This document shows positions 1-17,557 of a stretch of DNA of 32,000 nucleotides, in pieces (the first letter of the stretch is position 1; every line of letters begins with the position of its first letter). The position numbers were made by a program, and so were the translations under genes. This DNA is from Bacteroidales bacterium. GTDB lineage: Bacteria; Bacteroidota; Bacteroidia; Bacteroidales; P3. Where the stretch lies: assembly GCA_016292015.1 (NCBI GenBank), contig JAEEZY010000019.1:61415-93414 (forward strand), in the 5' to 3' direction. Below the pieces are notes generated by a model. That model made no database searches and was not told the origin of the DNA. It saw only the letters and a list, made by a program, of their open reading frames with translations.

Positions 1-417
1 TAAAGAAGAGTTTTCGCATAATTTCGCAAGTTTTAGCAATTTTTCGCAATCAAACAGAAGAAACAGCGCAGCGTATTTCATTTTCGAGTTTTTCGCTCCA
101 GCAATAGACAATCACCCAAGCAAGACCTTTCGTGTTTTTCGAGTTTTTCGATGTTAAAAAAAATAACCCCAGCAAACTAACCCCATCAAGTAATTCGATG
201 TAAAAACAGAAGAAACAGCGCAGCGCATTTCATTTTCGAGTTTTTCGCCCAGCAATAGACAATCACCCAAGCAAGCCTTTTAGTTTTTTTCGAGTTTTTC
301 GATGTTCAAAAAAAATATTTTCGCACCTTTTGCCTAGAGCAAACCCATACAAGAGCCCAGTCAAAAGCAAAAGACAAGCAAGCCTTTTCGATTTTTCGAT
401 GTTAAAAAAATAACCCC
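1..417. repeat. Mosaic direct-repeat field upstream of rfbB, running off the left edge of the window
   Basis: Two ~112-bp units at 53-165 and 205-316 (period 152 bp, only a few mismatches). Four 10-bp phased units at 11-50 (ttttcgcata/atttcgcaag/ttttagcaat/ttttcgcaat). The motif gagtttttcgatgtt plus an A-run occurs at 141-155 and 292-306, with a variant at 389-403. No ORF on the + strand. Confidence 0.9.
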
Positions 418-1548
418 ATGAACATATTAATCACCGGCGGAGCCGGTTTCATCGGCAACCACGTAGTCCGCCTCTTCGTCAACAAGTACCCCCAGTACAA
501 GATCGTCAACCTCGACAAGCTCACCTATGCCGGTAACTTGGCTAACCTCAAGGATGTCGAGGCCAAGCCCAACTACAAGTTCGTCAAGATGGACATCTGC
601 GACTTTGAAGGCGTGATGAGACTGATGCAGGCCGAGCATATCGACGGAATTATCCACCTGGCCGCCGAGAGCCATGTGGACCGCAGTATCAAAGACCCCT
701 TCACCTTCGCCCAGACCAATGTCATGGGCACGCTGAGCCTGCTGCAAGCCGCCAAAGCCTATTGGGAGAGCCAGCCCGAGAAGTACGAAGGCAAGCGGTT
801 CTACCATATCAGCACCGACGAGGTGTATGGAGCGTTGGCGATGACGCATCCCGAAGGCATAGAGCCCCCGTACACCACCAAGGCCTCGTCCGGCCAGCAC
901 CATTTGGCCTATGGCGACCAGTTCTTCACCGAAGAGTTGAAGTACCAGCCCCACAGCCCCTATAGTGCTGCCAAGGCCAGCAGCGACCATTTCGTCAGAG
1001 CCTTCCATGACACCTTCGGTATGCCGACCATTGTCACCAACTGCTCCAACAACTACGGCCCCTACCAGTTCCCCGAGAAGCTGATACCCTTGTTCATCAA
1101 CAATATACGGCATCGGAAGCCGTTGCCCGTGTATGGCAGAGGCGAGAATGTGCGCGACTGGCTGTATGTCGAAGACCATGCCAGAGCCATCGATACTATC
1201 TTCCATAGAGGCAAGGTAGCCGAGACCTACAATATAGGAGGCTTCAACGAGTGGAAGAATATCGATATAGTCAAGGTCCTTATCAACACTGTTGACCGGT
1301 TGTTAGGCCGTCCCGAAGGAGCCGACATGGACCTGATTACATACGTCACCGACCGAGCCGGCCACGACCTGAGGTATGCCATAGACAGCAGCAAGCTGCA
1401 GCGAGAGTTAGGCTGGGAGCCCAGTCTGCAGTTTGAAGAAGGCATCGAGAAGACCGTGAGGTGGTATTTAGACAACCAAGCCTGGCTAGACAACGTGACC
1501 AGCGGCAAATACCAAGACTACTATAGAGACATGTACGACAAAAGATAA
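418..1548 (+). CDS. rfbB: dTDP-glucose 4,6-dehydratase
   Basis: 376 aa. N-terminal Rossmann motif ILITGGAGFIGNH, STDEVYG, and the YSAAKASSDH catalytic Y-x3-K region. End-to-end resemblance to RmlB/RfbB. Confidence 0.95.
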   Translation: MNILITGGAGFIGNHVVRLFVNKYPQYKIVNLDKLTYAGNLANLKDVEAKPNYKFVKMDICDFEGVMRLMQAEHIDGIIHLAAESHVDRSIKDPFTFAQTNVMGTLSLLQAAKAYWESQPEKYEGKRFYHISTDEVYGALAMTHPEGIEPPYTTKASSGQHHLAYGDQFFTEELKYQPHSPYSAAKASSDHFVRAFHDTFGMPTIVTNCSNNYGPYQFPEKLIPLFINNIRHRKPLPVYGRGENVRDWLYVEDHARAIDTIFHRGKVAETYNIGGFNEWKNIDIVKVLINTVDRLLGRPEGADMDLITYVTDRAGHDLRYAIDSSKLQRELGWEPSLQFEEGIEKTVRWYLDNQAWLDNVTSGKYQDYYRDMYDKR

Positions 1549-2567
1549 TCCACCCCAGAGTAAAAAGAAGAAATTTAGTAATAAAAAAGGTTTCAAGCAA
1601 AGCAAGAAAAAACAAGCAATAAACAGCCGAAGCAAGCCAACCCATGCAAGGTTTCAAGCGAAGCAAGAAACAAATTTAGAGTATTTCGTAAAGACCCCAG
1701 CAATCAACCCCAACAGGATTTCGAGTTTTTAGAGTTTTTCGATGTTATAAAAAGGTTTCAAGCGAAGCAAGAAAAAACAAGCACTAAAAAGAAGAAGCAA
1801 ACCAACCCCAGCAAGGTTTCAAGCGCAGCAAGAAACAAATTTCGAGTTTTTCGCTCCAGCAATAGACAATTACCCAAGCAAACCTTTTCGTGTCTTTCGT
1901 GTTTTTAGATGTTTAAATAAAGAAGAGTTTTAGCATAATTTCGCACTTTTAGCATCTTTTCGCAATAAAACAGAAGAAACAGCGAAGCGAATTTCAATTT
2001 AGAGTATTTCGTAAAGACCCCAGCAATCAACCCCAACAGAATTTTAGTGTTTTTCGAGTTTTTAGATGTTTTAAAAAAAACGTAGTCAAGTAACCCCAGC
2101 AATGTTTCAAGCGAAGCAAGAAACAAATTTCGAGTTTTTCGAGTTTTTAGATGTTAAAAAGAAAACCGTAGTCAAGTAACCCCAGCAAGGTTTCAAGCGA
2201 AGCAAGAAACAATTTTCGCAATTTTAGCCCAAGACCCCAGCAACCTAGAGCAAAAAAAAAAAGATTTTCGCATAATTTCGCACTTTTCGCATTTTTTCGC
2301 AATAAAACAGAAGAAACAGCGAAGCGAATTTCAATTTAGAGTATTTCGCCAATAACCCAGCAATCAACCCCAACAGAATTTTCGAGTTTTTAGAGTTTTT
2401 CGATGTTATAAAAAAGGTTTCAAGCGAAGCAAGAAACAAATTTCGAGTTTTTCGAGTTTTTAGATGTTTAAAAAAAAAGCCGTAGTCAACCAACCCCAGC
2501 AAGGTTTCAAGCGAAGCAGAGAACAAAGATTGTTCACTATGCCGAGCAAGAAAAAGACAACGAAGTC
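1549..2567. repeat. Mosaic direct-repeat field downstream of rfbB (about 1 kb, non-coding)
   Basis: Large units at ~1917-2250 and ~2255-2530 (period ~338 bp) and a partial copy at ~1669-1785. There are 8 copies of ggtttcaagcgaagcaagaaac-like 22-mers (starts 1589, 1650, 1754, 1815, 2103, 2189, 2416, 2503) and 6 copies of g(a/t)gttttt(c/a)gatgtt plus an A-run (1732, 1899, 2056, 2141, 2393, 2454). Segment 1917-1968 matches window positions 1-52. An A11 run lies at 2252-2262. Confidence 0.9.
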
Positions 2568-2679
2568 AAACCGTAAACCTTAAACGGTAAACCGTAAACT
2601 ACAAACCGTAAACTACAAACCGTAAACCGTAAACCATAAACTACTAAGCTACTAACCTGTCTGTAAACCCTAACCTAAC
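2568..2679. repeat. TAAACCG-type heptamer/14-mer low-complexity array abutting the start codon of the RelA/SpoT gene
   Basis: ccgtaaac occurs at 2571, 2592, 2606, 2620 and 2627. The 14-mer aaaccgtaaactac is tandem. It is followed by aaactactaagctactaacc and ctaacctaac, then the ATG at 2680. Confidence 0.85.
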
Positions 2680-3726
2680 ATGAAATACTCCCGAAATAAG
2701 ATCAACATCTCCGGTAAGGCCCTCTTGGCAGGACCCGATACAGGATTTCCATACACCGACGCAGGTCTTGTCGTTGATGATTGGCGCCGGCTCCACATGG
2801 TTCCGCTCGAGGAGTTAGTGTCCGAAGTGACGCGCCTGCTTGCCGATGCTGGAGTGTCGGCCGCCTTCTCTTCCCATCGCCTCAAGCGAATGACCTCCAT
2901 CGTGGCCAAGCTACGTCACAACCCAGGGATGGGGCTTGGAGGTCTGCAGGATATCGGAGGGGCCCGTTTTGTGTTCGAGGATATGACCTCATTACGGCAG
3001 GCGCAGAATGTGGTTGCGGAAGCGAGTTTTAGCCATTTTCTTCCCGACAGGGAACCGTACGACTATGTGCAGACACCCAAAGAGAGTGGCTATAGGAGTA
3101 TCCATTTTGCCTATAAGTATGTCAGTGACGATACCGACTATGATGGACTTAGGGTTGAGCTGCAGCTCCGAACGCGGTTGCAGCACGATTGGGCCATGGC
3201 CGTTGAGACGGCCGAACTCATCTCCCAGTCGTCGCTTAAGGCCAGTCTTGGCGACCAGAACTGGTTAGAGTTCTTCAAGCTGTGCAGTGCTGTCTTTGCG
3301 CAGAAGGAGTCGATGCCCGTAGCCGAGGCATACAGAGAGTTTACGGAAAGAGACTATTGTGAGAGGTATGCGCAGCTGGAGCAGCAGTATAAGTTTATGG
3401 ATCAGCTGAAAGCACTTGTGAGTGCGGTGAAGATAACCGAAGAGCATACGTTGAAGGAAGGGTATGCCGTGATTTTCATACAGTTTTTAGACAAGAGAGT
3501 CCAGTTGAGGCATTTTAATACGGGAGAGTTGGAGAAGGCTACGGACTATTATTCCGAAGTGGAGAAGACCGTGAATGATGAGAATTCGGCAGTTGTCCTT
3601 GTGTCAGTCTCCGACATGCAAGAGCTCCAGGAAGCCTATCCCAGCTATTTCTTGAATTCAGGCGAGTTCATCGCCGCACTGGATGATTTTCAGCGAGCCT
3701 GCCGCATAAAAGGATACATCAAGTAG
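2680..3726 (+). CDS. RelA/SpoT-domain (small alarmone synthetase / toxSAS-like) protein with an uncharacterised C-terminal domain of about 150 aa
   Basis: 348 aa. Synthetase-fold signature in the expected order: HRLKRMTSIVAKL, LQDIGGARFVF, PKESGYRSIHFAYKY, VELQLRTRLQHDWAMAVE. The N-terminal KYSRNKINISGKAL and W-R-x-x-H helix region is typical of stand-alone SAS/toxSAS proteins. There is no hydrolase (HD) domain and no adjacent partner ORF. Confidence 0.8.
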   Translation: MKYSRNKINISGKALLAGPDTGFPYTDAGLVVDDWRRLHMVPLEELVSEVTRLLADAGVSAAFSSHRLKRMTSIVAKLRHNPGMGLGGLQDIGGARFVFEDMTSLRQAQNVVAEASFSHFLPDREPYDYVQTPKESGYRSIHFAYKYVSDDTDYDGLRVELQLRTRLQHDWAMAVETAELISQSSLKASLGDQNWLEFFKLCSAVFAQKESMPVAEAYREFTERDYCERYAQLEQQYKFMDQLKALVSAVKITEEHTLKEGYAVIFIQFLDKRVQLRHFNTGELEKATDYYSEVEKTVNDENSAVVLVSVSDMQELQEAYPSYFLNSGEFIAALDDFQRACRIKGYIK

Positions 3727-3754
3727 AATGCCCATTGACCAGCTCACAATGAAC

Positions 3755-3930
3755 TATTAAGCGATTAAGCTAATTTCAGTAAACCGTAAACATTAAACGG
3801 TAAACTAAACCAACAGTAAACCGTAAACAGTAAACAGTAAACTATAAACCGTAAACCACTAACCCACTTAGCAATTAAACAATTAAGCTACTAAACAACT
3901 AAGCAATTAAACTACTAAGCCCCTAACCCA
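3755..3930. repeat. Second TAAACCG / TTAAGC low-complexity array, in direct orientation relative to 2568-2679
   Basis: aaaccgtaaacAttaaacggtaaac at 3781 matches aaaccgtaaacCttaaacggtaaac at 2568. ccgtaaac occurs at 3784, 3821 and 3849. aaactactaagc followed by ctaaccc at ~3909-3929 parallels 2638-2657. Confidence 0.85.
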
Positions 3931-3964
3931 ATTAACGGCCAATTTAATTAACGTTTAAAAGAAT

Positions 3965-5161
3965 ATGCGTAAAGTAATGCTAGTCTTTGGAACCCGCCCA
4001 GAGGCCATCAAGATGTGCCCCCTGGTCAAGGAGTTCCAAAAATACCCGAAGGACTTTGAAACCATCGTCTGCGTCACAGGACAGCACCGCGAGATGCTCG
4101 ACCAGGTGCTGCATATCTTCGAGGTCAAGCCCGACTATGACCTCAACATCATGAAACAAGGCCAAGACCTCTATGATGTCACCGCCCGAGTCCTTACAGG
4201 TATGCGCGATGTGTTCACCAAGGTCAAGCCCGATGTGGTGCTGGTTCATGGAGACACGACAACAAGCACCGCGGCAGCTTTAGCCGCTTTCTATCAGCAG
4301 ATACCAGTAGGTCATGTCGAGGCAGGCCTCCGCACGCACAACATCTACAGCCCCTGGCCCGAAGAGATGAACCGCCAGATCACAGGACGTATCGCCACTT
4401 ACAATTTCTCACCCACACCACTCTCAGAAAGCAACCTGAAGGACGAGAAAGCCCAAGGCCAGATCTTCGTGACGGGCAATACCGTTATCGATGCCCTCCA
4501 CATGGTGGTGGAAAAGTTGAAAACCGACAAAGCCTTGGCCGATGAGCAAATCAACGTCCTAAAAGCCGCAGGCTATGATGTGACAAGATTATTCTCTAAT
4601 TCTCAAATTCTTGACAGAAAAAAGCTAGTCTTGATTACCGGCCATCGCCGCGAGAATTTCGGTGACGGTTTTATCTCTATGGTGACAGCCATGAAAGACC
4701 TCAGCGAGAAGTATCCCGATGTGGACTTTGTCTATCCCATGCACCTTAACCCCAACGTACGTAAACCCATCCACGAAGTCTTTGGTGAGGACTTGACGAA
4801 ATACGAGAACTTCTTCTTCATCGAACCGCTGCAGTATTTGGAGTTCGTCTATCTGATGGAGAAATCGACAGTTGTCCTTACCGATAGTGGTGGTATCCAG
4901 GAAGAAGCCCCCGGCCTTGGCAAGCCCGTGCTTGTGATGCGCGACACCACCGAGCGCCCGGAGGCCCTCAAGAGTGGCACGGTACACCTTGTGGGTACCA
5001 ACCACGACCTCATTGTTAGAGAGGTAAGTACCCTCCTCGATGACACAGCCGCCTACGAGCGCATGAGCAAAGCCGTGAACCCCTATGGCGACGGCAAAGC
5101 TTGTAGCCGCATTGTGCGGGCACTCAATGGTGAAAAGGTCAAGCGCTACGAGGTGAAATAA
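3965..5161 (+). CDS. wecB: UDP-N-acetylglucosamine 2-epimerase (non-hydrolysing)
   Basis: 398 aa. Motifs FGTRPEAIKM, HVEAGLRT, TGNTVIDAL, ITGHRRENFG, HLNPNV, TDSGGIQEEAP, VMRDTTERPE. Confidence 0.93.
   Translation: MRKVMLVFGTRPEAIKMCPLVKEFQKYPKDFETIVCVTGQHREMLDQVLHIFEVKPDYDLNIMKQGQDLYDVTARVLTGMRDVFTKVKPDVVLVHGDTTTSTAAALAAFYQQIPVGHVEAGLRTHNIYSPWPEEMNRQITGRIATYNFSPTPLSESNLKDEKAQGQIFVTGNTVIDALHMVVEKLKTDKALADEQINVLKAAGYDVTRLFSNSQILDRKKLVLITGHRRENFGDGFISMVTAMKDLSEKYPDVDFVYPMHLNPNVRKPIHEVFGEDLTKYENFFFIEPLQYLEFVYLMEKSTVVLTDSGGIQEEAPGLGKPVLVMRDTTERPEALKSGTVHLVGTNHDLIVREVSTLLDDTAAYERMSKAVNPYGDGKACSRIVRALNGEKVKRYEVK
4591..4614 (+). repeat. 24-bp element attctctaattctcaaattcttga inside the wecB coding sequence
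   Basis: Exact 24/24 match to 5608-5631. It encodes FSNSQILD in a loop just before the conserved ITGHRRE motif. Confidence 0.9.
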
Positions 5162-5170
5162 TAAACAAGG

Positions 5171-5196
5171 TCAAGAATTAGAGAATTTGAGAATTG
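5171..5196 (-). repeat. Imperfect inverted copy of the gagaatt-type element, immediately upstream of the GxxExxY gene
   Basis: tcaagaattagagaatttgagaattg. Its reverse complement caattctcaaattctctaattcttga is a permuted version of the 24-mer at 5608-5631. Confidence 0.6.
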
Positions 5197-5199
5197 TTG

Positions 5200-5604
5200 A
5201 TGGCTTTACTATATCCGGAACTAAGCAAAAGAATTCTGGGAATTGCGATGCAGTTGCATCGTGAAATGGGTTGCGGGTTTAAGGAAAAGGTGTATCAGGA
5301 TGCCTTTGAAGTACTCCTCAAGGAGAATAACATAAACTATGAACGCGAAAAGCATATCGACCTCAAGTTTCATGGGGTAAAACTGGAACACGATTTCTTC
5401 TATGACTTCCTTATTGATAATAAGATAGGGGTGGAGTTGAAGGCAGTGTCGGAAATAGTTGGAGAGTTTGAGGCTCAGATAATCAACTACCTGCATGTGA
5501 GCAATCACAAGCTTGGTTTGTTGCTGAATTTTGGTACCACGAGTCTGGAATACAAATGGTATCCCAACGAGTGGCACTACAGACAATGCGCAAGCATTGG
5601 TTGA
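5200..5604 (+). CDS. GxxExxY family protein (PD-(D/E)XK-like small protein common in polysaccharide loci)
   Basis: About 134 aa counted from the ATG at 5200 (the ORF track starts at TTG 5194). Motifs GCGFKEKVYQDA (the GxxExxY signature), DFLIDNKIGVELKAV and KLGLLLNFG. GC looks lower than in the flanking wecB and wecC. Confidence 0.8.
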   Translation: MALLYPELSKRILGIAMQLHREMGCGFKEKVYQDAFEVLLKENNINYEREKHIDLKFHGVKLEHDFFYDFLIDNKIGVELKAVSEIVGEFEAQIINYLHVSNHKLGLLLNFGTTSLEYKWYPNEWHYRQCASIG

Positions 5605-5670: not shown

Positions 5671-6897
5671 ATGATTAACGTTATCGGACTGGGCTACATC
5701 GGACTGCCCACAGCATTGATGATGGCTTCGCATGGTGTTGAAGTCATAGGTACAGACTACAACAAAGAACTGGTGGCAACACTGAATGCAGGAAAGACCA
5801 CCTTTAAGGAGGACGGCCTTGATGAACTCTTCCAGGATGCGCTGAAAAAGGGCATCAAGTTCACCACCGAGTATCAGAAGACCGACATATACATCGTGAG
5901 CGTACCCACACCTTACGACAAGTTCAGCAAGAAGGTCGATGCCTGCTATGTGGTGTCAGCTGTCAAAGATGTGATGAAGGTCTGCCCCAAAGGAGCCACT
6001 GTGGTGATTGAGAGCACTGTCAGCCCCGGAACCATCGACAAGTTCGTCCGTCCTGTCATCGAGGCCAACGGCTTCAAGATAGGCGAGGATATCAACCTCG
6101 TCCACGCCCCCGAGCGCATCATCCCAGGTAATATGGTCTATGAGTTGTTGCATAATAACCGCACCATCGGTGCCGACAGCCGTGAGATTGGTGAGAAGGT
6201 GAAGAAATACTATGCTTCCTTCTGCCAAGGCGAGATTGTGGTGACTGACATCCGTACTGCCGAGATGACCAAGGTGGTGGAGAATACCTACCGAGCCGTG
6301 AACATCGCCTTCGCCAACGAGCTCAGCCGCATCTGTCGCCACGACAATATGGATGTGTACGAGATAATCAAGATTTGCAACATGCACCCCCGTGTCAATA
6401 TCTTGCAGCCCGGTCCTGGAGTCGGCGGTCATTGCATCTCCGTTGACCCGTGGTTCCTCGTGGGCGACTATCCCCAGCTGGCCAAGGTGATTGACGAGAG
6501 CATGAAGACCAACGACTATCAGCCAGTCTTCGTCCTCGAGCGCATCCATGAGATCATGGAAGAGCACCATATTACCGACAACCGCCGAGTGGGATTGTAT
6601 GGCATCACATACAAGGAGAATGTGGATGATGTAAGAGAGAGTCCGACCTTGCAGATGATCGACATACAGGAGCGCCATCTTGCCCGTCCTTTGAAGAGCT
6701 TCGACCCCTTCTTCACCGACAAAGAGATTGTGAAGAACCAGCTTCTCGACTTCGACCAGTTCCTCAACGAGGTTGACATGGTAGTCATCATGGTGAAGCA
6801 CGACCATATCAAGCAGAATTGGGACAAGCTGAAAGGCAAAGTCATCCTTGACTGCCATAATATCTGCCCGTTGATAGAGAACGTCTATCACATCTAA
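5671..6897 (+). CDS. wecC: UDP-N-acetyl-D-mannosamine dehydrogenase
   Basis: 408 aa. N-terminal GLGYIGLP NAD-binding motif, a UDP-glucose/GDP-mannose dehydrogenase family layout, and the catalytic-Cys region GVGGHCISVDP. It is paired with wecB. Confidence 0.9.
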   Translation: MINVIGLGYIGLPTALMMASHGVEVIGTDYNKELVATLNAGKTTFKEDGLDELFQDALKKGIKFTTEYQKTDIYIVSVPTPYDKFSKKVDACYVVSAVKDVMKVCPKGATVVIESTVSPGTIDKFVRPVIEANGFKIGEDINLVHAPERIIPGNMVYELLHNNRTIGADSREIGEKVKKYYASFCQGEIVVTDIRTAEMTKVVENTYRAVNIAFANELSRICRHDNMDVYEIIKICNMHPRVNILQPGPGVGGHCISVDPWFLVGDYPQLAKVIDESMKTNDYQPVFVLERIHEIMEEHHITDNRRVGLYGITYKENVDDVRESPTLQMIDIQERHLARPLKSFDPFFTDKEIVKNQLLDFDQFLNEVDMVVIMVKHDHIKQNWDKLKGKVILDCHNICPLIENVYHI

Positions 6898-6918
6898 CAT
6901 CATACATCTTACATCAAA

Positions 6919-6970
6919 CATCCTTGACTGTCACAATATTTGTCCATTGTACGGTGTTTATCGTATTTAA
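6919..6970 (+). pseudogene. Orphan remnant of a second wecC 3' end
   Basis: catccttgactgTcaCaatatTtgTccAttg matches 6843-6873 of the intact gene. It translates to ILDCHNICPL in both copies, and every difference is a synonymous third-position change. The tail then diverges and ends in TAA at 6968-6970. Confidence 0.8.
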
Positions 6971-7129: not shown

Positions 7130-8656
7130 ATGCAGATACTAGATTGTACCTTTCGTGATGGTGGTTACTACACAGATTGGGATTTCAATGAGGATATTGT
7201 ACGCACCTATTTGGAGGGAGTAAACAATCTTCCCATTGATTATATTGAATTGGGGTACCGTAATAACCCAGAGAAAGAGTATCTGGGTAAGTTTGGCTAC
7301 ACTCCGGTATACCTTCTCAAGCAAGTTCGTGAGTTGTCAAAGAAGAAGCTCGCAGTGATGCTGAACGAGAAGAACACAAAGGTTGAAGACCTTCAGAATT
7401 TGACAGAACCAATCAAAGGATTGGTGGATATGATTCGCTTGGCCGTTGATCCCAAGAATCTTCTGCGAGCTATTAACTTGGCTAAGGCTATCAAGACTCA
7501 AGGATTCGAGGTGGGCTTCAACATTATGTATATGTCTAAATGGGAACAATATGAAGAGTTATATGAAAAGCTGAGTTCCCTTAACGGAGTTGTAGATATC
7601 TTGAATATGGTTGACTCCTTTGGAGGTATCATGCCCAATGAGGTCACTGCCATGGTGGGGAAACTTCGTGGTATCGTTACATGTAAGATAGGTTTTCATG
7701 GTCATAATAACTTGGAGATGGCGTTAGCAAACACCTTGGCTGCAATCAATAGTGGTGTGGATTCCGTCGATGCAACCATTCTTGGTATGGGGCGAGGAGC
7801 AGGAAATTTGAACACGGAGTTGCTCCTTACTTACCTGAACAAAGATGGTCTTGGAGTGGATTTTAATGCCTTGAGTGATGTTATCACAGCATTTCAACCT
7901 CTATACGAAACTTATAGATGGGGAACACAGTTGCCTTATATGATTTCCGGTGCTAATTCGCTGCTACAGAGAGAAGTAATGGCATTGGTAACAAATCGTG
8001 TTTATTCTTTTGATAGTATAGTAAGAGGTGTGCAAAACAAGAAGGATGGGATTGTGGATAATGCCAAATATCCTTTGCTTGAAAAAGCTGAATTTGATGA
8101 CGTGATTATCATCGGTGGAGGGGAATCACCTGTAGATCATTTAGAAGGCATTACCAACTTCATTGCTAAGAAAAAGAATATTGCTCTTGTGTTTGCAACA
8201 GCCAGACACGCAGGTAAGTTTATTGATATAAATGTACCTCAGTATTATTGCTTATTGGGAAGAGAAGCCAAACGCCTTAGAGCTAATGTGAAAGCAGAAC
8301 AGTTTAAGGCTAAGTGCATTTTACCACCATATCCACGCAAACTTGGAACGGATGTTCCGTCTTTTGCAGAAAAAGCAACTTACGAATTGCCCAGGATAGA
8401 ATTTACAACAGAGTTTCAAGACTCTTGTACAACACTGGCCATCCAGACTGCCTTGAATATCAGCAAGGGAAACATTTACATTGTTGGTTACGACGGCTAT
8501 CCTGGGAGTGTGCTTTCTGAAAAGGAAGTTGCTTTAAGCAACGAAAATATGGCTTTACTACAGGATTATGAGAAATACACTGGCAAGAAGTTGATGTCGT
8601 TGACACCCTCTTTATATCCTGAATTAGAAATAGTGTCATTATATCAATTCATATAA
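7130..8656 (+). CDS. HMGL-like / DRE-TIM aldolase-domain protein with an extra C-terminal domain of about 200 aa
   Basis: 508 aa. The N-terminus ILDCTFRDGGY, together with later HGHNNLEMALANTLAAI and GMGRGAGN, is typical of pyruvate-carboxyltransferase / 4-hydroxy-2-oxovalerate-aldolase-type TIM barrels. The C-terminal region (VIIIGGGES ... IYIVGYDGY) loosely resembles the MptE/DUF115-like pattern of the ORF at 22145. Confidence 0.7.
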   Translation: MQILDCTFRDGGYYTDWDFNEDIVRTYLEGVNNLPIDYIELGYRNNPEKEYLGKFGYTPVYLLKQVRELSKKKLAVMLNEKNTKVEDLQNLTEPIKGLVDMIRLAVDPKNLLRAINLAKAIKTQGFEVGFNIMYMSKWEQYEELYEKLSSLNGVVDILNMVDSFGGIMPNEVTAMVGKLRGIVTCKIGFHGHNNLEMALANTLAAINSGVDSVDATILGMGRGAGNLNTELLLTYLNKDGLGVDFNALSDVITAFQPLYETYRWGTQLPYMISGANSLLQREVMALVTNRVYSFDSIVRGVQNKKDGIVDNAKYPLLEKAEFDDVIIIGGGESPVDHLEGITNFIAKKKNIALVFATARHAGKFIDINVPQYYCLLGREAKRLRANVKAEQFKAKCILPPYPRKLGTDVPSFAEKATYELPRIEFTTEFQDSCTTLAIQTALNISKGNIYIVGYDGYPGSVLSEKEVALSNENMALLQDYEKYTGKKLMSLTPSLYPELEIVSLYQFI

Positions 8657-9352
8657 ATGATGAAAGAAAAAGTGTCTTTCTTCCTTCCAACACGTAAGGG
8701 AAGCGAAAGGGTAAAGGATAAGAATACCAAGCCTTTCGCTGGAATAGAGGGTGGATTGGTAGAGAATAAAGTAAAGCAACTGCTGGAATCACGTCTCATT
8801 GATGAGATTATTTTCTCTTCCAATGATGAAGTTTGTATGGAAGTTGCTTCGAAGTATAAAGACAGTCGTTTAAGAATCATCAAGCGCCCAACGGAATTGT
8901 GCTTAAGTACAACAAACCTTCAGGACCTGATTTGTTACGTGCCAACCGTTACGGATGCAGAGCATATCCTTTGGGGGCATGTGACAACTCCGCTCTGCGG
9001 CGCAGATCAGTATGATTCTGGTATTAAGTTGTACTTTGACAAACTTAATGAGGGTTATGATTCCTTGGTGGGAGTGACAGAATTGAAGAATTTCCTTTTG
9101 AACAAGGATGGTAAACTGATAAATAACACCACAGATATACCTTGGCCCAGAACACAGGATTTGGAGGCCCTTTACCCCATTAACCATACAATGTTCATTG
9201 CAAAGCGTGAAGTCTATACCAAGAAAAAGAACCGAATTGGAGAAAAACCACTGCTGTATGTCATGGATGAACTTCATTCTTTTGATATTGACTGGCCTAA
9301 TGACTTTGTAATAGCTGAGATTATGTATAATAACCTATACGGAACCAAGTAA
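8657..9352 (+). CDS. Cytidylyltransferase of the CMP-NeuAc/CMP-Kdo synthetase (CTP_transf_3, SpsF-like) family
   Basis: 231 aa. The N-terminal FLPTRKGSERVKDKNTKPF motif corresponds to the P-loop-like (A/L)P(A/T)RxGSxxxxxKN signature of acylneuraminate cytidylyltransferases. The start abuts the aldolase stop. Confidence 0.75.
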   Translation: MMKEKVSFFLPTRKGSERVKDKNTKPFAGIEGGLVENKVKQLLESRLIDEIIFSSNDEVCMEVASKYKDSRLRIIKRPTELCLSTTNLQDLICYVPTVTDAEHILWGHVTTPLCGADQYDSGIKLYFDKLNEGYDSLVGVTELKNFLLNKDGKLINNTTDIPWPRTQDLEALYPINHTMFIAKREVYTKKKNRIGEKPLLYVMDELHSFDIDWPNDFVIAEIMYNNLYGTK

Positions 9353-9353
9353 G

Positions 9354-10391
9354 ATGACAAAAGTAGTTACCTTTGGAGAAATTATGGTGCGACTTGGAGC
9401 GCCTGGATATCTCAAGCTTATACAAACTGACAAGTTTGATGTCGGCTATGCTGGAGCAGAGGCTAATGTGGCGGTCTCGCTGGCCAATTATGGTGTTGAG
9501 ACGGATTATATCACCTGTTTACCTGACAATCCAATCGCTGAACGTTGCATTATGGATTTACGGGGACACAAAGTTGGCGTTGACCATATTCACCGCAGTG
9601 GCAAGCGCATGGGTATCCTTTATTTGGAAACAGGTAGTAACGCCAGACCCTCTAAAGTTTACTATGATCGAGAGTACAGTGCCATTGCAACTGTTGAACC
9701 CGGCTCTTTTGACTGGAAAGAAATCCTTAAGGATGCAGAGTGGTTTCACTGGACGGGTATCACACCGGCCCTTTCTGAGAATGCTGCAGATGAGTGTTTG
9801 AAAGCCATTAAGACAGCAAACGGGTTGGGTGTAATTGTGAGCTGTGATATCAATCATCGTGGTAATCTTTGGAAGTACGGAAAGAAGGCATCTGATGTGA
9901 TGCCTGAGATGGTGGCATGTTCTGACATAATCCTTGGCAATGAAGAAGATTGTGAGAAGGTTTTTGGCATTAAACCCAAGGACTTTGATGCGACAAAGAC
10001 CAATGGCAATGTGGATCAGAGCATTTTCCTAAGTGTTTGCCAGCAGATGATGGAACGATTCCCCCGTTGTAAAAAAATGGTGGTGACGCTCCGAGGGGCA
10101 ATCAATGCCAACCATAATACATGGGGTGGAGTCCTTTATAACGGTCAAGAACTGATGGAGTCTCGTCGCTATGATATTACAGATATCGTAGATAGAGTAG
10201 GAGGAGGGGACTCTTTTATGGGAGGGCTCATCTTTGGCATGCTGCATTATCAAGATGACCGTAAGGCATTGGAGTTTGCTACGGCGGCCAGCTGCTTGAA
10301 GCATACTTTGAAAGGAGATTATAATTGGGTCACTATACAAGATGTTGAAAACCTGCTGGGCGGTGAAGTGAGTGGAAGAGTAAAAAGATAA
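9354..10391 (+). CDS. PfkB-family sugar kinase, 2-dehydro-3-deoxygluconokinase (KdgK)-like
   Basis: 345 aa. The N-terminus VVTFGEIMVRL ... GAEANVAVSLANYG and the C-terminal DRVGGGDSFMGGLIFG motif are typical of ribokinase/KdgK-family proteins. Confidence 0.8.
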   Translation: MTKVVTFGEIMVRLGAPGYLKLIQTDKFDVGYAGAEANVAVSLANYGVETDYITCLPDNPIAERCIMDLRGHKVGVDHIHRSGKRMGILYLETGSNARPSKVYYDREYSAIATVEPGSFDWKEILKDAEWFHWTGITPALSENAADECLKAIKTANGLGVIVSCDINHRGNLWKYGKKASDVMPEMVACSDIILGNEEDCEKVFGIKPKDFDATKTNGNVDQSIFLSVCQQMMERFPRCKKMVVTLRGAINANHNTWGGVLYNGQELMESRRYDITDIVDRVGGGDSFMGGLIFGMLHYQDDRKALEFATAASCLKHTLKGDYNWVTIQDVENLLGGEVSGRVKR

Positions 10392-13099: not shown

Positions 13100-14050
13100 A
13101 TGAGTAAAGCATTTATCTTCCCTGGTCAAGGCTGCCAGAAGGAGGGAATGGGTGGTGATTTGTATGCTCAGTTCCCAAAAGCCAAAGAGTTGTTTGAGCG
13201 TGCTAATGATTTCCTTGGTTATAAGATTACCGACGTGATGTTTCACGGTTCGGAAGAGGAACTGATGGAAACCAAAAATACCCAACCCTCAGTGTTTTTA
13301 TATGAGACTATTCTCGCCATGTGTCAGGATTATGTGAAGCCTGATTGCGTTGCTGGTCACTCACTTGGTGAATTTGCCGCTTTGGTTATTGCTGGTTCCA
13401 TTACTTTTGAGGAAGGCTTGAAACTGGTTTTGAATCGAGCATTGATCGGTCAAAAGGCATCAGATGAAGCTCCTGTCAAGACAGGTATGGGTGCTGTAAT
13501 AGGACTTCCAGACGAGTATGTTGAGAAACGCATCAAAGAGATTTGGGAAGAAGTTGGCGAACCGCTTTATTTTGCCAATTACAACGGTCCCGGTCAGGTG
13601 GTTATCTCTGGTTCTCGCAAAGCGGTGCGTGTTGCATGTAAAGCCTTTATGAAGGAAGGTGCAAAGAAAGCTGTGCCTCTGGCTATTGGCGGTTCATTCC
13701 ACACTCCTTTTATGGATGAGGCACGTGAAGAATTAGGTGCTATTATAAAGGAGGTTGTCTTCAAACCCGCTTCTATTCCTGTTTATCAATGTGTAGATGC
13801 ACTGCCGCATACAGACCCTGAAGAGATTCGTGCTAATCTGATTCAACATATTACGCATCCTGTTCTTTGGACGGCAATGACGCACAATATGGCAAAGGAT
13901 GGCGTAACTGAGTTCTATGAGGTTGGAACAGATGATACTTTGGAAAAGATAGTACGCCGCATGTATCCAAACCTGCACCAGCAGTCACTGCTTGATGTTC
14001 CGACATACGCAGGTAAGATTAAGAATTTTAAAGTTGTAAAAGAAGGATAA
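13100..14050 (+). CDS. ACP S-malonyltransferase (FabD-like acyltransferase)
   Basis: 316 aa. Motifs FIFPGQGCQ, nucleophile elbow AGHSLGEFAAL, and NYNGPGQVVISG. Confidence 0.88.
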   Translation: MSKAFIFPGQGCQKEGMGGDLYAQFPKAKELFERANDFLGYKITDVMFHGSEEELMETKNTQPSVFLYETILAMCQDYVKPDCVAGHSLGEFAALVIAGSITFEEGLKLVLNRALIGQKASDEAPVKTGMGAVIGLPDEYVEKRIKEIWEEVGEPLYFANYNGPGQVVISGSRKAVRVACKAFMKEGAKKAVPLAIGGSFHTPFMDEAREELGAIIKEVVFKPASIPVYQCVDALPHTDPEEIRANLIQHITHPVLWTAMTHNMAKDGVTEFYEVGTDDTLEKIVRRMYPNLHQQSLLDVPTYAGKIKNFKVVKEG

Positions 14051-14052
14051 GT

Positions 14053-14460
14053 ATTGATATTTCACATATTGAACATATCGGTATAGACGTTAAGAGTATT
14101 GAGGAGTCACTCCCATACCATGAAACAGTGCTTGGCTTCAAGTGCTATGCAATAGAAGAAGTAGCCGACCAGAAAGTAAAGGCAGTTTTCTTAAAAATGG
14201 GTGAAACCAAGCTGGAATTACTGGAACCATCTTCTGAGGAAAGTCCAAAAGCTAAGTTCCTTGAAAATAGAGGCTCTGGTATCCATCATACAGCATTTGC
14301 CGTGTAAGATGGCGTTGCTATTGCACTTTGAGAGTGTAAGAACAAAAAAGTAAGGCTAATGGATTTTGAACACCGAAATTGTGCTGAATGGCTGAATGTC
14401 GCTTTCCAAAATCCAAAGTCAACACAATGAGTTCTTACAGAACTTTGTGAAAAACAATAA
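14053..14460 (+). pseudogene. Methylmalonyl-CoA epimerase / VOC (glyoxalase-fold) pseudogene
   Basis: A single reading frame reads IDISHIEHIGIDVKSIEESLPYHETVLGF...KAVFLKMGETKLELLEPSSEESPKAKFLENRGSGIHHTAFAV*DGVAIAL*ES..KKVRLMDFE...VAFQNPKSTQ*VLTEL. There are in-frame stops at 14305 (TAA), 14329 (TGA) and 14428 (TGA), no ATG start, and no frameshift. Confidence 0.8.
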
Positions 14461-14516
14461 ATCAAGATAATTTTTGAGTTCAATAATTTAAGTTCAACAT
14501 TTAAAATTTTAGAATT

Positions 14517-14744
14517 ATGGAATTAAATGAATTTGTAACAAGATTTGCTGAGGAGTTCGATGAGACTCCCGCTGAACAGTTCAAGGCTGACACCGTGTTT
14601 AAGTCACTCGACGAGTGGGGTTCACTGACCGCACTTTCTATCATTGCAATGGTAGATGAGGAGTTTGAAAAGCGCATTACTGGCGCAGACCTCCGTTCTG
14701 TCAACACACTGGAGGAATTGTACAACTTAATTCAGAGCAAATAA
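14517..14744 (+). CDS. Acyl carrier protein (phosphopantetheine-binding)
   Basis: 75 aa and acidic. LDEWGSLTALSIIAMV matches the (D/G)SL phosphopantetheine serine helix-II pattern. It lies among fatty-acid-synthase-type genes. Confidence 0.75.
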   Translation: MELNEFVTRFAEEFDETPAEQFKADTVFKSLDEWGSLTALSIIAMVDEEFEKRITGADLRSVNTLEELYNLIQSK

Positions 14745-15502
14745 TGGCTTACAATCCATTTTCATTAGAAGGTAAGACCATTCTCGTAACGGGAGCCTCG
14801 TCCGGAATCGGACGAGGCATCGCCGCCGAGTGCTCCAAGATGGGGGCCAAGATGGTCATCAATGGACGTAATGTTGAACGATTGAATGAAACAATGTCCA
14901 TGCTTGAAGGAGAAGGTCATGTGGCGATTGCTGCAGATCTTTCAAAACAAGAAGACATAGACAGCCTTGTTGCACAATGTCCTGCAATCAATGGTGTCGT
15001 TCACAGTGCGGGTATCCCCAAAATATGTGGGGTTAAACATATTGAGCGCAGTTTATTGGAAGAAATAGTCAATGTCAATGAAATCGCTCCGATTCTTTTG
15101 ACATCTGGTCTGCTAAAAAAGAAAAAACTTCAAAAGAAGTCGTCTATCATTTTCATTGCCTCCATATCTGGAGTTTGTGTCGCTAATGTTGGCGAAGCAC
15201 CATATTCAACTACAAAGGGTGGACTTGCAGGCTTTACGAAGGGAGCAGCTTATGAGTTAGCTGCACAGGGTACGAGAGTCAATACAATTTGTCCAGCTTT
15301 GGTGCCTACAAGTATTCTTGGACTGTCAAACGAAATGTTCTCGGAACAACAGTTGAAAGATACTATGTACGGTCGATATCCTCTTAAACGAGTCGGCACT
15401 CCTGAAGATATTGCCAATGGTGCTATTTATCTTCTTTCAGATGCATCAAGTTGGGTGACTGGTATTAATTTAATAATCGATGGTGGATATACATTAGTAT
15501 AA
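14744..15502 (+). CDS. SDR-family 3-oxoacyl-ACP reductase (FabG-like), copy 1
   Basis: 252 aa. Motifs TGASSGIGRGIA and YSTTKGG (Y-x3-K). TAATG overlap with the ACP gene. Confidence 0.85.
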   Translation: MAYNPFSLEGKTILVTGASSGIGRGIAAECSKMGAKMVINGRNVERLNETMSMLEGEGHVAIAADLSKQEDIDSLVAQCPAINGVVHSAGIPKICGVKHIERSLLEEIVNVNEIAPILLTSGLLKKKKLQKKSSIIFIASISGVCVANVGEAPYSTTKGGLAGFTKGAAYELAAQGTRVNTICPALVPTSILGLSNEMFSEQQLKDTMYGRYPLKRVGTPEDIANGAIYLLSDASSWVTGINLIIDGGYTLV

Positions 15503-15503
15503 T

Positions 15504-16556
15504 ATGGCATTAGTAAAATTTAATAATATAGGAATTAAGGCCTTAAGTGCAACTGTTCCTCAGAATGTGGTTAAAACACGTTCACTTACGGATTACTATA
15601 CCCCAGAGGCAATAGAAAAATTTATTGAAGCAACAGGTATAGAAGAGCGTAGATTGGTCCAGAGAGACCAGTGTGCGTCAGATCTCTGTTATAAATCAGC
15701 TTGTCAAATTTTTGGTGAGACGGATATCAAACGTGAGGATATTGACGCACTATTCTTTGTTAGTCAAACCCCAGATTACAAGTCTCCTGGGACTTCCATC
15801 ATTCTCCAAGATAAATTGGGCTTGAAGAAATCTACTCTTGTTTATGATGTTAATATGTCATGTTCTGGTTTTATACACGGCATGTTGATGGCATACAGTT
15901 TCCTTCAATCCCCATCTTTCAACAATGTTATGGTGATGGTTGGAGATACTCTGTCAAAGATTACATCTGTACAGGATAAAGGAACAGGAATGCTTTTGGG
16001 CGATGCTGGCATATGCTGTGTTATTGGTAAGGGCGAACAGTATGGTGAGAGTTTCTTTTCAATGAATACGGATGGCTCTAATATTCAGTCTGTTATTTTG
16101 CCTGCTGGCGGTAGTAGAATCCCGAGTTCAGAAGAGACGCTTAAGGTGAAGGAATATGAAGATGGCAGTATTCGTAGTTTGGAACATGTCATTATGGTTG
16201 GTCCTGATGTCTTTAGCTTCGCAATTTCAGAACTGCCTCGTGACATTAAGCGACTATTAGAGTATGCAGGAAAGTCTATTGATGAAGTTGATAAATATGC
16301 ATTCCATCAGGCTAATGACTTTATGACTAATTATATTGTCAAGAAGTCTAAGGCAAATCCTGACAAACTTTTGCACTCTATTCAGAAGTATGGAAATACA
16401 GCAGGTACTTCCATTCCTTTGTGTATGGTACACAATCGAGAAGAAATAAAGTCAAACGATATAATTTTAATGAATGCGATTGGAGCTGGTTTCGCTTATG
16501 GAACAGTGCTTTTAAATATCGCTGATTGCAAGATTTTGAAACGACAGGAACTGTGA
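15504..16556 (+). CDS. 3-oxoacyl-ACP synthase III (KAS III / FabH-like), copy 1
   Basis: 350 aa. Cys-His-Asn triad contexts NMSCSGF, FHQAN and YGNTAGTSIP. Confidence 0.85.
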   Translation: MALVKFNNIGIKALSATVPQNVVKTRSLTDYYTPEAIEKFIEATGIEERRLVQRDQCASDLCYKSACQIFGETDIKREDIDALFFVSQTPDYKSPGTSIILQDKLGLKKSTLVYDVNMSCSGFIHGMLMAYSFLQSPSFNNVMVMVGDTLSKITSVQDKGTGMLLGDAGICCVIGKGEQYGESFFSMNTDGSNIQSVILPAGGSRIPSSEETLKVKEYEDGSIRSLEHVIMVGPDVFSFAISELPRDIKRLLEYAGKSIDEVDKYAFHQANDFMTNYIVKKSKANPDKLLHSIQKYGNTAGTSIPLCMVHNREEIKSNDIILMNAIGAGFAYGTVLLNIADCKILKRQEL

Positions 16557-17557
16557 TAAAAGTATATATAAAAGCGATTTCATACAATCTACCTGAGAAC
16601 ATCCTTACCAATGAGATGATTGCAGAAGAATTCCCAGAGTGGACTGTTGAGAAAATAGACAAGAAAATTGGAATAAGGAAGCGTCACGTGACAGCAGATG
16701 GTGAAACGGCAAGTGACCTTGCTGTTGGGGCAGCAGAAAAACTCTTTACAGAAAACGGTTATGACCGCAATCAGATAGACTATCTGATATTTGTTACACA
16801 AAGCCCTGATTACCATCTGCCCACAAATGCTTGTACCATTCAAACACGCTTGGGATTATCAAATCGACTGACAGCCTTTGATGTCAATCTTGGTTGCAAT
16901 GGTTTTGTGGCAGGACTATCACTTGCTAAAGCAGTTATAGTTGCTGGTCAAGCAAAGAATGTGTTGCTGCTTACAGGTGAAACATACTCAAAGTACATGC
17001 ACGAGCGTGACAAGAGTAACCGTACTATTTTTGGAGATGGAGCGGCTGCTACGTTGGTAAGTACCGAGGGTATAGCAGAAGTAGGCGAGTTTGTGATAGG
17101 CACTGATGGCATTGGTGCTGAGAACCTAATAGTGAAGACAGGAGGTGCAAGACATCCACAACCTGCCGGTGACTTAAAGTATGACGATTTTGGAAATCCA
17201 CGTTCTTCAGATAACCTCTACATGGATGGCCCTGCCATTCTCAATTACTCTCTTGATAGCATTCCTCAGTTAGTTGCAGATGTGCTTGATAAGAATGGCG
17301 TTACGATGGAAGACATAGACCTTCATGTTTATCATCAGGCTAATACCTTCCTTGCCAATCTCGAACGCAGGAAATTAAGAATTCCTGCAGAAAGGTATTA
17401 TTGTAATATTGAGAACTTCGGTAATACCGTGTCCTCAACCATTCCTATAGCTCTCTGTGAAGCTGTAAAAGAAGGGCGTATTCAGAAAGGAACAAAAGTA
17501 TTATCGGTAGCCCAAGGTCTTGGATACACATGGGGCGGTATGGTATTGTTTTTCTAA
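16553..17557 (+). CDS. 3-oxoacyl-ACP synthase III (KAS III / FabH-like), copy 2
   Basis: Triad contexts NLGCNGF, YHQAN and FGNTVSSTIP. The start is uncertain: GTG 16553 (GTGA overlap, giving VIKVYIKAISY) or TTG 16526 as in the ORF track. Confidence 0.8.
   Translation: MIKVYIKAISYNLPENILTNEMIAEEFPEWTVEKIDKKIGIRKRHVTADGETASDLAVGAAEKLFTENGYDRNQIDYLIFVTQSPDYHLPTNACTIQTRLGLSNRLTAFDVNLGCNGFVAGLSLAKAVIVAGQAKNVLLLTGETYSKYMHERDKSNRTIFGDGAAATLVSTEGIAEVGEFVIGTDGIGAENLIVKTGGARHPQPAGDLKYDDFGNPRSSDNLYMDGPAILNYSLDSIPQLVADVLDKNGVTMEDIDLHVYHQANTFLANLERRKLRIPAERYYCNIENFGNTVSSTIPIALCEAVKEGRIQKGTKVLSVAQGLGYTWGGMVLFF

Follow-up and report, generated by a model that had tools for sequence, protein, structure and literature searches.

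Among enzymes with a RelA/SpoT synthetase domain, CapRel^SJ46, the fused toxin-antitoxin (TA) of Salmonella phage SJ46 (Protein Data Bank (PDB) entry 7ZTB; Zhang et al. 2022, PMC9712102), is the closest characterised relative of the gene described here. It is one polypeptide of ~350 aa in which N-terminal helices, a toxSYNTH core, anchor helices, a pseudo-zinc-finger-like domain (pseudo-ZFD) and C-terminal helices follow one another, and the C-terminal region of such fused proteins is homologous to separate toxSAS antitoxins (PMC9712102). We analyzed a window of 32,000 nt from a Bacteroidales bacterium (contig JAEEZY010000019.1, positions 61,415 to 93,414), whose gene at 2680–3726, labeled X, resembles CapRel^SJ46 along its whole length; loci and contigs compared with it are labeled L001–L144. 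We consider it probable that X is a CapRel-family fused TA enzyme and, in genomic terms, an accessory insertion of a single open reading frame (ORF).

X shares with CapRel^SJ46 the single-chain architecture, the R/R/Y catalytic residues and a YXXY motif, and like it has neither a hydrolase domain nor a partner gene. The two differ in setting: CapRel^SJ46 is prophage-borne, whereas X is chromosomal and lies in a polysaccharide locus. Their sensor-domain sequences are too unrelated for a trigger of X to be predicted. Three other described groups can be compared with X. Bicistronic toxSAS pairs (PhRel/ATphRel of phage Phrann, FaRel2/ATfaRel2 and Panacea-linked pairs) also have a toxic RelA/SpoT synthetase domain, but their antitoxin is a separate gene, and none lies beside X. 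The small alarmone synthetases (SAS) RelQ and RelP (YjbM/YwaC) have the synthetase-domain fold and motifs in common with X, but make (p)ppGpp and are without its N-terminal helices and C-terminal 170 aa. PDC-S33 is listed as an untested phage defence candidate (Payne et al. 2024 preprint, 10.1101/2024.01.29.577857). The genes that define PDC systems were found embedded in other multi-gene systems, as X is; their hosts are BREX, DISARM, restriction-modification (RM) or Hma systems, whereas that of X is a polysaccharide operon.

Probable assignment of X to the CapRel family

X starts with ATG and encodes 348 aa (its coordinates include the stop codon). The synthetase signature noted in a first-pass annotation, which was made from the letters alone, was found in full: QDIGGAR at residue 90, GYRSIH at 137 and ELQLRTRLQHDWA at 160. 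A Pfam search returned RelA_SpoT (PF04607) alone, over residues 66–173 (E=2e-14), with no HD hydrolase match in the protein, again as first noted. The toxSYNTH core contains R67, D91 (in QDIGG), R96, the G-loop tyrosine Y138 and E160-LQLRT.

When all PDB sequences were searched with phmmer, the best match was CapRel^SJ46 (7ztb_A/9erv_A, E=4.5e-26), aligning residues 1–330 of X with 13–362 of the chain. The next matches were ordinary small alarmone synthetases at 1e-5, over residues 61–174 only, and FaRel2-type proteins gave no PDB match at E≤1. An AlphaFold2 (AF2) model built on 55 homologues had a predicted local distance difference test score (pLDDT) of 82.4 and a predicted template-modeling (TM) score (pTM) of 0.75. 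Foldseek superposed this model on 7ztb_B along the whole chain (TM 0.78/0.79 over 352 columns, E=2.2e-21). RelP and RelQ reached a query TM score (TMq) of only ~0.42, with about half of the model covered. In the model, linker helices H193–209, H223–237 and H239–255 align with the alpha7–alpha9 region of CapRel. They lead into a sensor domain of strands E262–268, E273–279 and E303–309, with helix H284–297 between strands 2 and 3 and two helices after, matching the three-stranded topology described for the CapRel pseudo-ZFD (PMC9712102). The C-terminal ~150 aa, earlier called unrecognised, thus align with the CapRel antitoxin domain by both phmmer and Foldseek.

Residues with roles assigned in CapRel^SJ46 (PMC9712102) could be mapped onto X. 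R79 and R116, which stack on ATP, correspond to R67 and R96; Y155 of the G-loop to Y138; V338, L339 and A351 of the docking interface to V306, L307 and A319; and Y352 and Y355 of the YXXY motif to Y320 and Y323 (Y320-P-S-Y323, nt 3637–3648). All of these X residues are invariant across the 55-homologue alignment. The PADLOC model PDC-S33 matched X over its full length (E=4.4e-98, 326.9 bits) and also matched CapRel^SJ46 itself (E=3.3e-85, 284.6 bits), so PDC-S33 is effectively the CapRel family. Against the NCBIfam YjbM model (NF053588), X scored 30.9 bits where the cut-off is 320, which places it outside the housekeeping SAS; its 348 aa, with the additional 170-aa C-terminal domain, compare with ~200–250 aa for synthetase-only small alarmone synthetases. 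In sequence and predicted structure, X has every feature by which a fused CapRel protein can be recognized in silico. The CapRel-like fused TA first proposed for this gene is therefore supported in silico by full-length match, fold, conserved residues and a shared PADLOC model.

As the first-pass annotation had stated, there is no partner gene beside X: neither the 1131 bp upstream nor the 238 bp downstream holds a credible partner ORF, and no ATphRel-like, small alarmone hydrolase (SAH) or Panacea-domain antitoxin gene was found in the window. ORFs of the upstream spacer are all TTG-started, on the minus strand and built of repeat modules. Within-species deletions of 313 and 337 nt (in L001 and L061; neither a multiple of 3) delete or shorten these ORFs and leave X whole, so no antitoxin partner is conserved beside X, and a fused CapRel enzyme would need none.

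With the CapRel mechanism (PMC9712102) as template, the pseudo-ZFD of X would fold back in the uninfected cell so that the YXXY motif (Y320/Y323) plugs the ATP site between R67 and R96. Upon infection, a newly made phage protein would bind the pseudo-ZFD and anchors and keep the enzyme open, and the open enzyme would pyrophosphorylate tRNAs, stopping translation in the infected cell (abortive infection, Abi). By this analogy X is most likely a phage-triggered tRNA pyrophosphokinase; we infer its enzymatic activity, toxicity, phage trigger and defence role from homology with CapRel^SJ46. The first-pass annotation had pointed to phage capsid as what such a protein senses. CapRel^SJ46 also senses the unrelated Gp54 of phage Bas11 (PMC11578894), and CapRel^Ebc senses a Gp0.4-FtsZ complex (PMC13423816); on these sources, CapRel proteins sense different phage proteins through a variable domain. 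Because its relatives differ in this way, the capsid trigger does not transfer to X.

Conservation and distribution

An exhaustive search with X yielded 910 full-length clusters (50% identity) at E≤1e-30, almost all of 335–365 aa. Entropy in the family was 0.22 around YXXY, against 0.60 for the catalytic core and 1.12 for the pseudo-ZFD, the most variable part. This alignment pattern follows that of CapRel, with core and YXXY conserved and the pseudo-ZFD variable. Ratios of nonsynonymous to synonymous divergence (dN/dS) among the twelve closest genes were 0.06–0.13, lowest in the core (~0.06), with dS saturated; ORFs were intact in >100 homologues. These values point to strong purifying selection on X.

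The window is identical to Joint Genome Institute (JGI) contig Ga0401733_0000487 over 11.6 kb, and the exact X protein occurs on a handful of metagenome contigs, each time between rfbB and wecB. Homologues of 46–80% identity were found in 30 species-level genomes of uncultured Bacteroidales, one of them a Leyella stercorea assembly, from rumen, other ruminant gut compartments and herbivore faeces. Relatives of ~30% identity are in Massilia, Sutterella, Coriobacteriia and others. The base composition of X (GC 0.52; third-position GC, GC3, 0.62) resembles that of rfbB, wecB and wecC. From this resemblance and the saturated dS between homologues we conclude that X is an old resident of the lineage and not a recent import.

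Genomic contexts of X homologues

Of the 12 closest loci (≥64% identity), 10 place X in a polysaccharide locus, as a rule directly behind rfbA, rfbB, ugd or an epimerase gene, and polysaccharide genes occur within 7 kb of X in ~16 of 30 genome loci. Polysaccharide loci make up only a few per cent of Bacteroidales genomes; set against that general figure, the enrichment of X looks large. Across rumen and herbivore-gut Bacteroidales, X usually follows a conserved gene at short distance, in most cases a nucleotide-sugar gene that heads a polysaccharide locus. The upstream neighbor was on the same strand as X in all but three loci, and the spacer before X was ≤100 nt in ~20 of 33. Because of the shared strand and short spacers, X is probably transcribed with upstream operon genes in these related loci. 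A literature search found no description of this recurrent co-oriented embedding in Bacteroidales polysaccharide loci.

Other sites of X were after a class II tRNA synthetase gene (L035, L036, L037, L040), sodB (L025), a conserved family 2 glycosyltransferase (GT2) gene (L039) and a UpxY-like NusG gene (L031). At the class II (D/K/N-type) tRNA synthetase sites, in four species, the displaced 3'-end copy ranges from 51 nt through 18 nt and 17 nt (one mismatch) to none that could be detected, a series that resembles a single old insertion decaying at a different pace in each. This is a curious position for what would be, by analogy, a tRNA-modifying toxin.

Neighbors of X often included genes of TA or Abi type: AAA_15/AAA_21 and AAA_14/DUF4143 (L015), Panacea (L016, L024), Abi_2/HEPN (L043), HipA (L045), and Schlafen/AlbA_2 with Hypoth_Ymh (L025). 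In the last of these an accessory island behind sodB (L025 8720–14800) comprises PDDEXK_3, sodB, X, a protein combining Schlafen/AlbA_2, HATPase_c_4 and a winged helix-turn-helix (wHTH), and a Hypoth_Ymh protein.

Probable insertion scars around X and other accessory genes

We assembled 80 metagenomic loci whose RfbB is 83–90% identical to that of the window and looked for X within 6 kb. None of the 80 had it, and in most the next gene was within ~200 bp of rfbB. Similarly, ugd and rfbA are 1–21 nt apart in L069, L111 and L141, and are split by X in L026. Direct repeats flanking X scored above the control 95th percentile in 11 of 33 Bacteroidales X loci, where ~1.6 would be expected, and every site had a repeat sequence of its own. 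Where the pattern was clean, the repeated stretch was the upstream gene's 3' end as far as the stop codon, and it recurred 1–19 nt after the X stop. The duplicated ends measured 116 nt in L039, 69 nt in L025 (sodB), 51 nt in L037, 38 nt in L022 and 18 nt in L035.

A filled and empty pair was available for one site. L039 carries X; L144 does not, but shares its YfhO-GT2 arrangement, the GT2 being 95% identical. The single 116-nt GT2 3' end of L144 matched each L039 copy at 114 of 116 positions, and the L039 copies matched each other at 112 of 116; the insert itself, 1090 nt long, consists of a 46-nt leader, the ORF and 6 nt. The duplicated 116 nt (L039 9839–9954 and 11045–11160; L144 3793–3908) are 98% identical between L039 and L144 and the rest of the GT2 gene 91% (715/786), a contrast that may reflect local conservation or recent recombination confined to the insertion point.

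The same scar was found around other genes. It brackets an AAA_14/DUF4143 gene (L015 4453–4537/5837–5922; 85 nt of the 3' end of the upstream Epimerase_2 gene), PDDEXK_3 genes with about 200 nt (L025 8513–8715/9144–9340; L019 8312–8499/9159–9358) and an Abi_2/HEPN gene with 69 nt (L043 11058–11126/12025–12093). Direct repeats also bracket an unannotated 290-aa gene (L119 3703–3902/4910–5109). Among control genes, 13 of 1073 had a flank score ≥30, and the annotated top scorers were small accessory genes. Because unrelated accessory genes carry the same scar, the insertion process appears to be independent of cargo. The direct repeats around X are most simply read as scars of insertion. In the literature that could be searched, we found no description of such an ORF-tight scar common to X and other accessory genes.

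For the window itself, capture of X as a cassette, part of the first-pass annotation, is supported by the 80 RfbB loci that lack X, the 11 repeat-flanked sites and the L039/L144 pair; for the window species no empty allele was found, as taken up below.

How insertion may have happened

Of the processes on record, homology-facilitated illegitimate recombination ('3'-end displacement') comes nearest, and X may have arrived by it behind a conserved gene. The donor-derived copy would stay attached upstream, and the 3' end of the recipient gene would be pushed downstream as a decaying repeat. Displacement of this kind was proposed for Rhs loci and for type VI secretion system (T6SS) effector-immunity arrays of Vibrio (PMC5361080), where likewise a new gene stands behind a conserved one and the ancestral 3' end is displaced as a decaying repeat. 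The cargo there is a toxin tip plus immunity gene, whereas here it is one complete unrelated ORF; here also the right boundary is 1–19 nt from the stop codon at independent sites, and in the window microsatellite arrays stand in place of repeated gene ends.

The cassette junctions showed no conserved boundary motif, a result that speaks against any site-specific recombinase using a fixed core site. Integron cassettes resemble X as single ORFs without a promoter that lie along the direction of transcription between repeats, but the repeats of X are copies of local host sequence, different at every site; we found 0 inverted repeats in 1500–4000, no attC-like repeat and no integrase nearby, where all neighboring genes encode sugar-nucleotide or polysaccharide enzymes. 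A transposon was rejected in the absence of inverted repeats and a transposase, and the 18–116-nt duplications are too long and variable for staggered-cut target duplications. The tRNA/tmRNA scan found none, leaving no tRNA-type integration site.

A broader possibility, which we hold tentatively and rate as doubtful, extends this to a whole class of cargo in rumen and herbivore-gut Bacteroidales (CapRel, AAA_14/DUF4143, PDDEXK_3 and Abi_2/HEPN). Promoterless single-gene immune or selfish modules would be slotted serially behind the conserved genes that head surface-polysaccharide operons, by an undescribed, cargo-independent mode of insertion with an 18–200-nt target duplication and a cut a few bases from the stop. 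The repertoire would then be co-transcribed and co-inherited with capsule type, the phage receptor ('receptor-linked immunity').

Spacers and heptamer arrays flanking X in the window

X is separated from rfbB by 1131 bp of non-coding DNA (1549–2679) and from wecB by 238 bp (3727–3964). The direct-orientation low-complexity flanks reported at first pass proved to be heptamer arrays, at 2568–2641 (Tandem Repeats Finder, TRF: period 7, 10.6 copies) and 3777–3857, both of (GTAAACC)n type and in the same orientation. Of the 21 GTAAAC hexamers in the window, 15 fall within these two arrays. The downstream bracket stops 30 nt short of wecB. In direct orientation the flanks align best between 2568–2653 and 3781–3868, with a score of 40.5, near the control 99th percentile from 286 genes (41.5) and above that from 1073 genes (31.6). 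No rfbB remnant was found downstream of X in the window. Either the insertion cut an older array in two, or it duplicated its target and the copies then drifted; the brackets fit both readings equally.

In L061, of the same species, the upstream array is 63 nt (exactly nine units) shorter, and on this difference the arrays evolve by slippage, though the shortening could also be an effect of metagenome assembly. The upstream array lies 39–112 nt before the X start codon, and its length polymorphism is like that which tunes expression at contingency loci. On the coding strand the two X-flank arrays are G-poor (9–10% G), and as RNA they fold poorly, possibly as unstructured inter-cistronic leaders in organisms without Shine-Dalgarno pairing. 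As RNA the downstream bracket is unstructured: its minimum free energy was −6.1 kcal/mol over 146 nt, and 198 of 200 shuffles folded at least as well. No Rfam family was found in the spacers or arrays (gathering thresholds over the whole window; permissive scan over 1–4100). The Bacteroidetes-type promoter TTTG-N17-23-TANNTTTG had one match, inside a coding region, as chance predicts.

The 41-nt module of the spacer between rfbB and the upstream array was found on this species' contigs only; it is present in each of the three long spacers of the locus and never on any but the + strand. These three ~1-kb spacers (upstream of ugd, rfbB and X; window 1–417 and 1549–2567; L001/L002) share modules such as AAGGTTTCAAGCGAAGCAAGAAACAAATTTCGAGTTTTTCG and TTTCGAGTTTTTAGAGTTTTTCGATGTT. 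The 22-mer GGTTTCAAGCGAAGCAAGAAAC was likewise confined to this species' contigs (12 of 143 loci), and module copy number varies, giving spacers of 731, 818 and 1131 bp; the L001 and L061 deletions of 313 nt and 337 nt are module deletions. In L019, the closest genome-level relative, (AACTTTG)n arrays occur before a 23S_rRNA_IVP gene, between that gene and X, and after X. More generally, short tandem arrays abound in the intergenic DNA of the lineage; a period of 7 is very common, and nearly every site has its own unit: CCACTGA, TAACTCA, AACTTTG, AACCTTG, ATAACCC, TCTTCCA and AACTTAG (L019 7500–13500; L023 9927–9963; window 6890–6922).

Weighing the readings

Several results count against X as a CapRel-type defence gene inserted as a cassette. 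X is only 26–30% identical to the characterised CapRel^SJ46, and two interface positions differ, A77 and A341 being changed to Ser (S65 and S309). The YXXY hinge (residues 314–325) has pLDDT <50 in the AF2 model, and because this segment is so poorly determined the closed, auto-inhibited state of X is only predicted. We can name no trigger, positive selection was not detected in the sensor domain (dN/dS ~0.12, with dS saturated), and none of the viral contigs searched carried the X family, which leaves a phage-borne (moron) origin of X unsupported. Panacea domains are partners of toxSAS and other toxins. Genes with this SocA-like antitoxin domain adjoin X in two related loci, L016 (9148–9597, 149 aa, downstream) and L024 (8932–9927, 331 aa, upstream), and some members may therefore have extra control. 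On the genomic side, look-ups with the exact X, WecB and RfbB proteins found no empty allele of the window species, returning filled contigs or contigs that break in the repeat spacer. In the window X is 1131 bp from rfbB, so that co-transcription is not evident, and a scan for sigma-70 promoters and intrinsic terminators gave nothing above shuffles. The tight right end, 1–19 nt past the stop at independent sites, is not predicted by illegitimate recombination alone.

An alternative raised at first pass was that X is a housekeeping or regulatory small alarmone synthetase whose (p)ppGpp tunes the polysaccharide locus, the C-terminus being a metabolic sensor. The synthetase domain, the weak matches to RelQ/YjbM-type enzymes and the repeated location in polysaccharide loci would fit, but the YjbM score falls at 30.9 against a cut-off of 320, and ordinary SAS structures cover half of the X model (TMq ~0.42) where CapRel, in a full-length match, covers all of it. 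The C-terminal domain holds the invariant YXXY of the CapRel auto-inhibitor, X is missing from all 80 related RfbB loci, other sites of X lie behind sodB, a tRNA synthetase gene and a GT2 gene, and its neighbors are often of Abi or TA type; we regard this alternative as highly improbable. X could otherwise be a toxSAS of another mode, a (pp)pApp synthetase that depletes ATP or an enzyme controlled by an unlinked or neighboring antitoxin such as Panacea. The toxSAS enzymes do include (pp)pApp makers (PMC9712102), Panacea-domain genes do adjoin X in L016 and L024, and the closed state is not resolved in the X model. We nonetheless judge this very unlikely: there is no Panacea or small partner gene in the window or in most loci, the L024 Panacea domain lies within a 331-aa protein and may be its own system, the fused antitoxin domain and interface residues are invariant, and the characterised protein closest to X, ahead by ~20 orders of magnitude, modifies tRNA and inhibits itself.

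It is also unlikely, in our estimate, that X is a selfish or decaying passenger without defence role, with polysaccharide loci as insertion-tolerant recombination hot spots and the arrays as independent microsatellites. Polysaccharide loci are indeed highly recombinogenic, short intergenic arrays of many units abound in both the window genome and L019, slippage alters the length of arrays, and unrelated PDDEXK_3, AAA_14/DUF4143 and Abi_2 genes carry the same flank-repeat signature. Passengers of this kind would fit poorly with strong purifying selection, intact ORFs in >100 homologues at saturated dS and the consistent co-orientation of X with upstream genes. The X-flank heptamer unit is confined, within 32 kb, to both X flanks, plus one place 10 kb upstream in L001, and relatives in the family defend E. 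coli against phages (PMC9712102). Set beside these alternatives, a CapRel-family fused TA enzyme inserted as a single ORF remains the reading we favor.

The polysaccharide locus around X

The gene content of the window confirms, at sequence level, the polysaccharide biosynthesis locus recognized at first pass: RfbB, WecB, WecC and the Wzx flippase (Table 1) are accompanied by glycosyltransferases (GT1/GT4/GT56), an HMGL-like enzyme, cytidylyltransferases, a PfkB kinase, RfbA, a DegT aminotransferase, acetyl-/acyltransferases and FabH-like enzymes. Genes for the HMGL-like enzyme, a CTP_transf_3 cytidylyltransferase and the PfkB kinase stand in a row at 7130–10391; an acyltransferase, a short-chain dehydrogenase and two FabH-like ketosynthases are at 13100–17557. 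The HMGL/CTP_transf_3/PfkB and acyltransferase/FabH sets suggest an unusual acylated or non-standard sugar in the polysaccharide. The HMGL-like gene has a GC of 0.40, down from ~0.52 for rfbB/wecB/wecC.

Between wecB and wecC lies a PDDEXK_3 ('GxxExxY') gene (5194–5604), flanked by an imperfect inverted pair of ~25 nt (5172–5196/5605–5630; 8-mers caagaattagagaatttgagaattg and aaaattctctaattctcaaattcttg). A second PDDEXK_3 gene is found between ugd and rfbB in L001/L002, in differing alleles of 136 and 124 aa.

Table 1. Coordinates of X, its predicted parts and surrounding features in the window
Feature	Coordinates	Strand	Evidence or details
rfbB, dTDP-glucose 4,6-dehydratase (RfbB-type), upstream neighbor	418..1548	+	Pfam GDP_Man_Dehyd/Epimerase
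Repeat-module spacer, rfbB to upstream array	1549..2567	+	8 copies of 41-nt module; 164-nt and 105-nt duplications
Upstream bracket, heptamer (AAACCGT/GTAAACC) array then TAAACTAC units	2568..2653	+	TRF, flank alignment
X, probable CapRel-family fused toxin-antitoxin gene	2680..3726	+	PDC-S33, phmmer vs PDB, Foldseek
toxSYNTH (RelA/SpoT synthetase) core, residues 61–181	2860..3222	+	PF04607, residue mapping
Linker/anchor helices, residues 182–255, from toxin domain to C-terminal sensor domain	3223..3444	+	AF2 model
Predicted pseudo-zinc-finger-like antitoxin/sensor domain, residues 256–309	3445..3606	+	AF2 model
C-terminal helical extension with predicted YXXY auto-inhibition motif and A319	3607..3723	+	Residue mapping
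Downstream bracket	3777..3934	+	Heptamer array 3777–3857, then 8/16/32-nt ACTAAGC/CAATTAAA-type arrays 3852–3934
wecB, UDP-GlcNAc 2-epimerase (WecB-type), downstream neighbor	3965..5161	+	Pfam Epimerase_2 E=1.1e-115
WecC	5671–6897		
Wzx flippase	19383–20837		

Significance

With X, the CapRel family, which is understood from experiment, would reach into uncultured Bacteroidales of the rumen. Since this family has been catalogued and PADLOC would flag X, its genome setting is of more interest than the protein: an ORF-sized, co-oriented insertion with a displaced host 3' end. We infer the functional meaning of the embedding in polysaccharide loci, as well as the insertion mechanism. If genuine, the signature of host 3' end, ORF and host 3' end again would serve as a finder for new accessory and defence genes in metagenomes. 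Capsule type governs phage susceptibility in gut Bacteroidales. If defence genes were routinely wired into capsule operons, their expression would follow capsule expression and exchange, and such capsule-linked defence, if true, would bear on phage-host dynamics in these bacteria.

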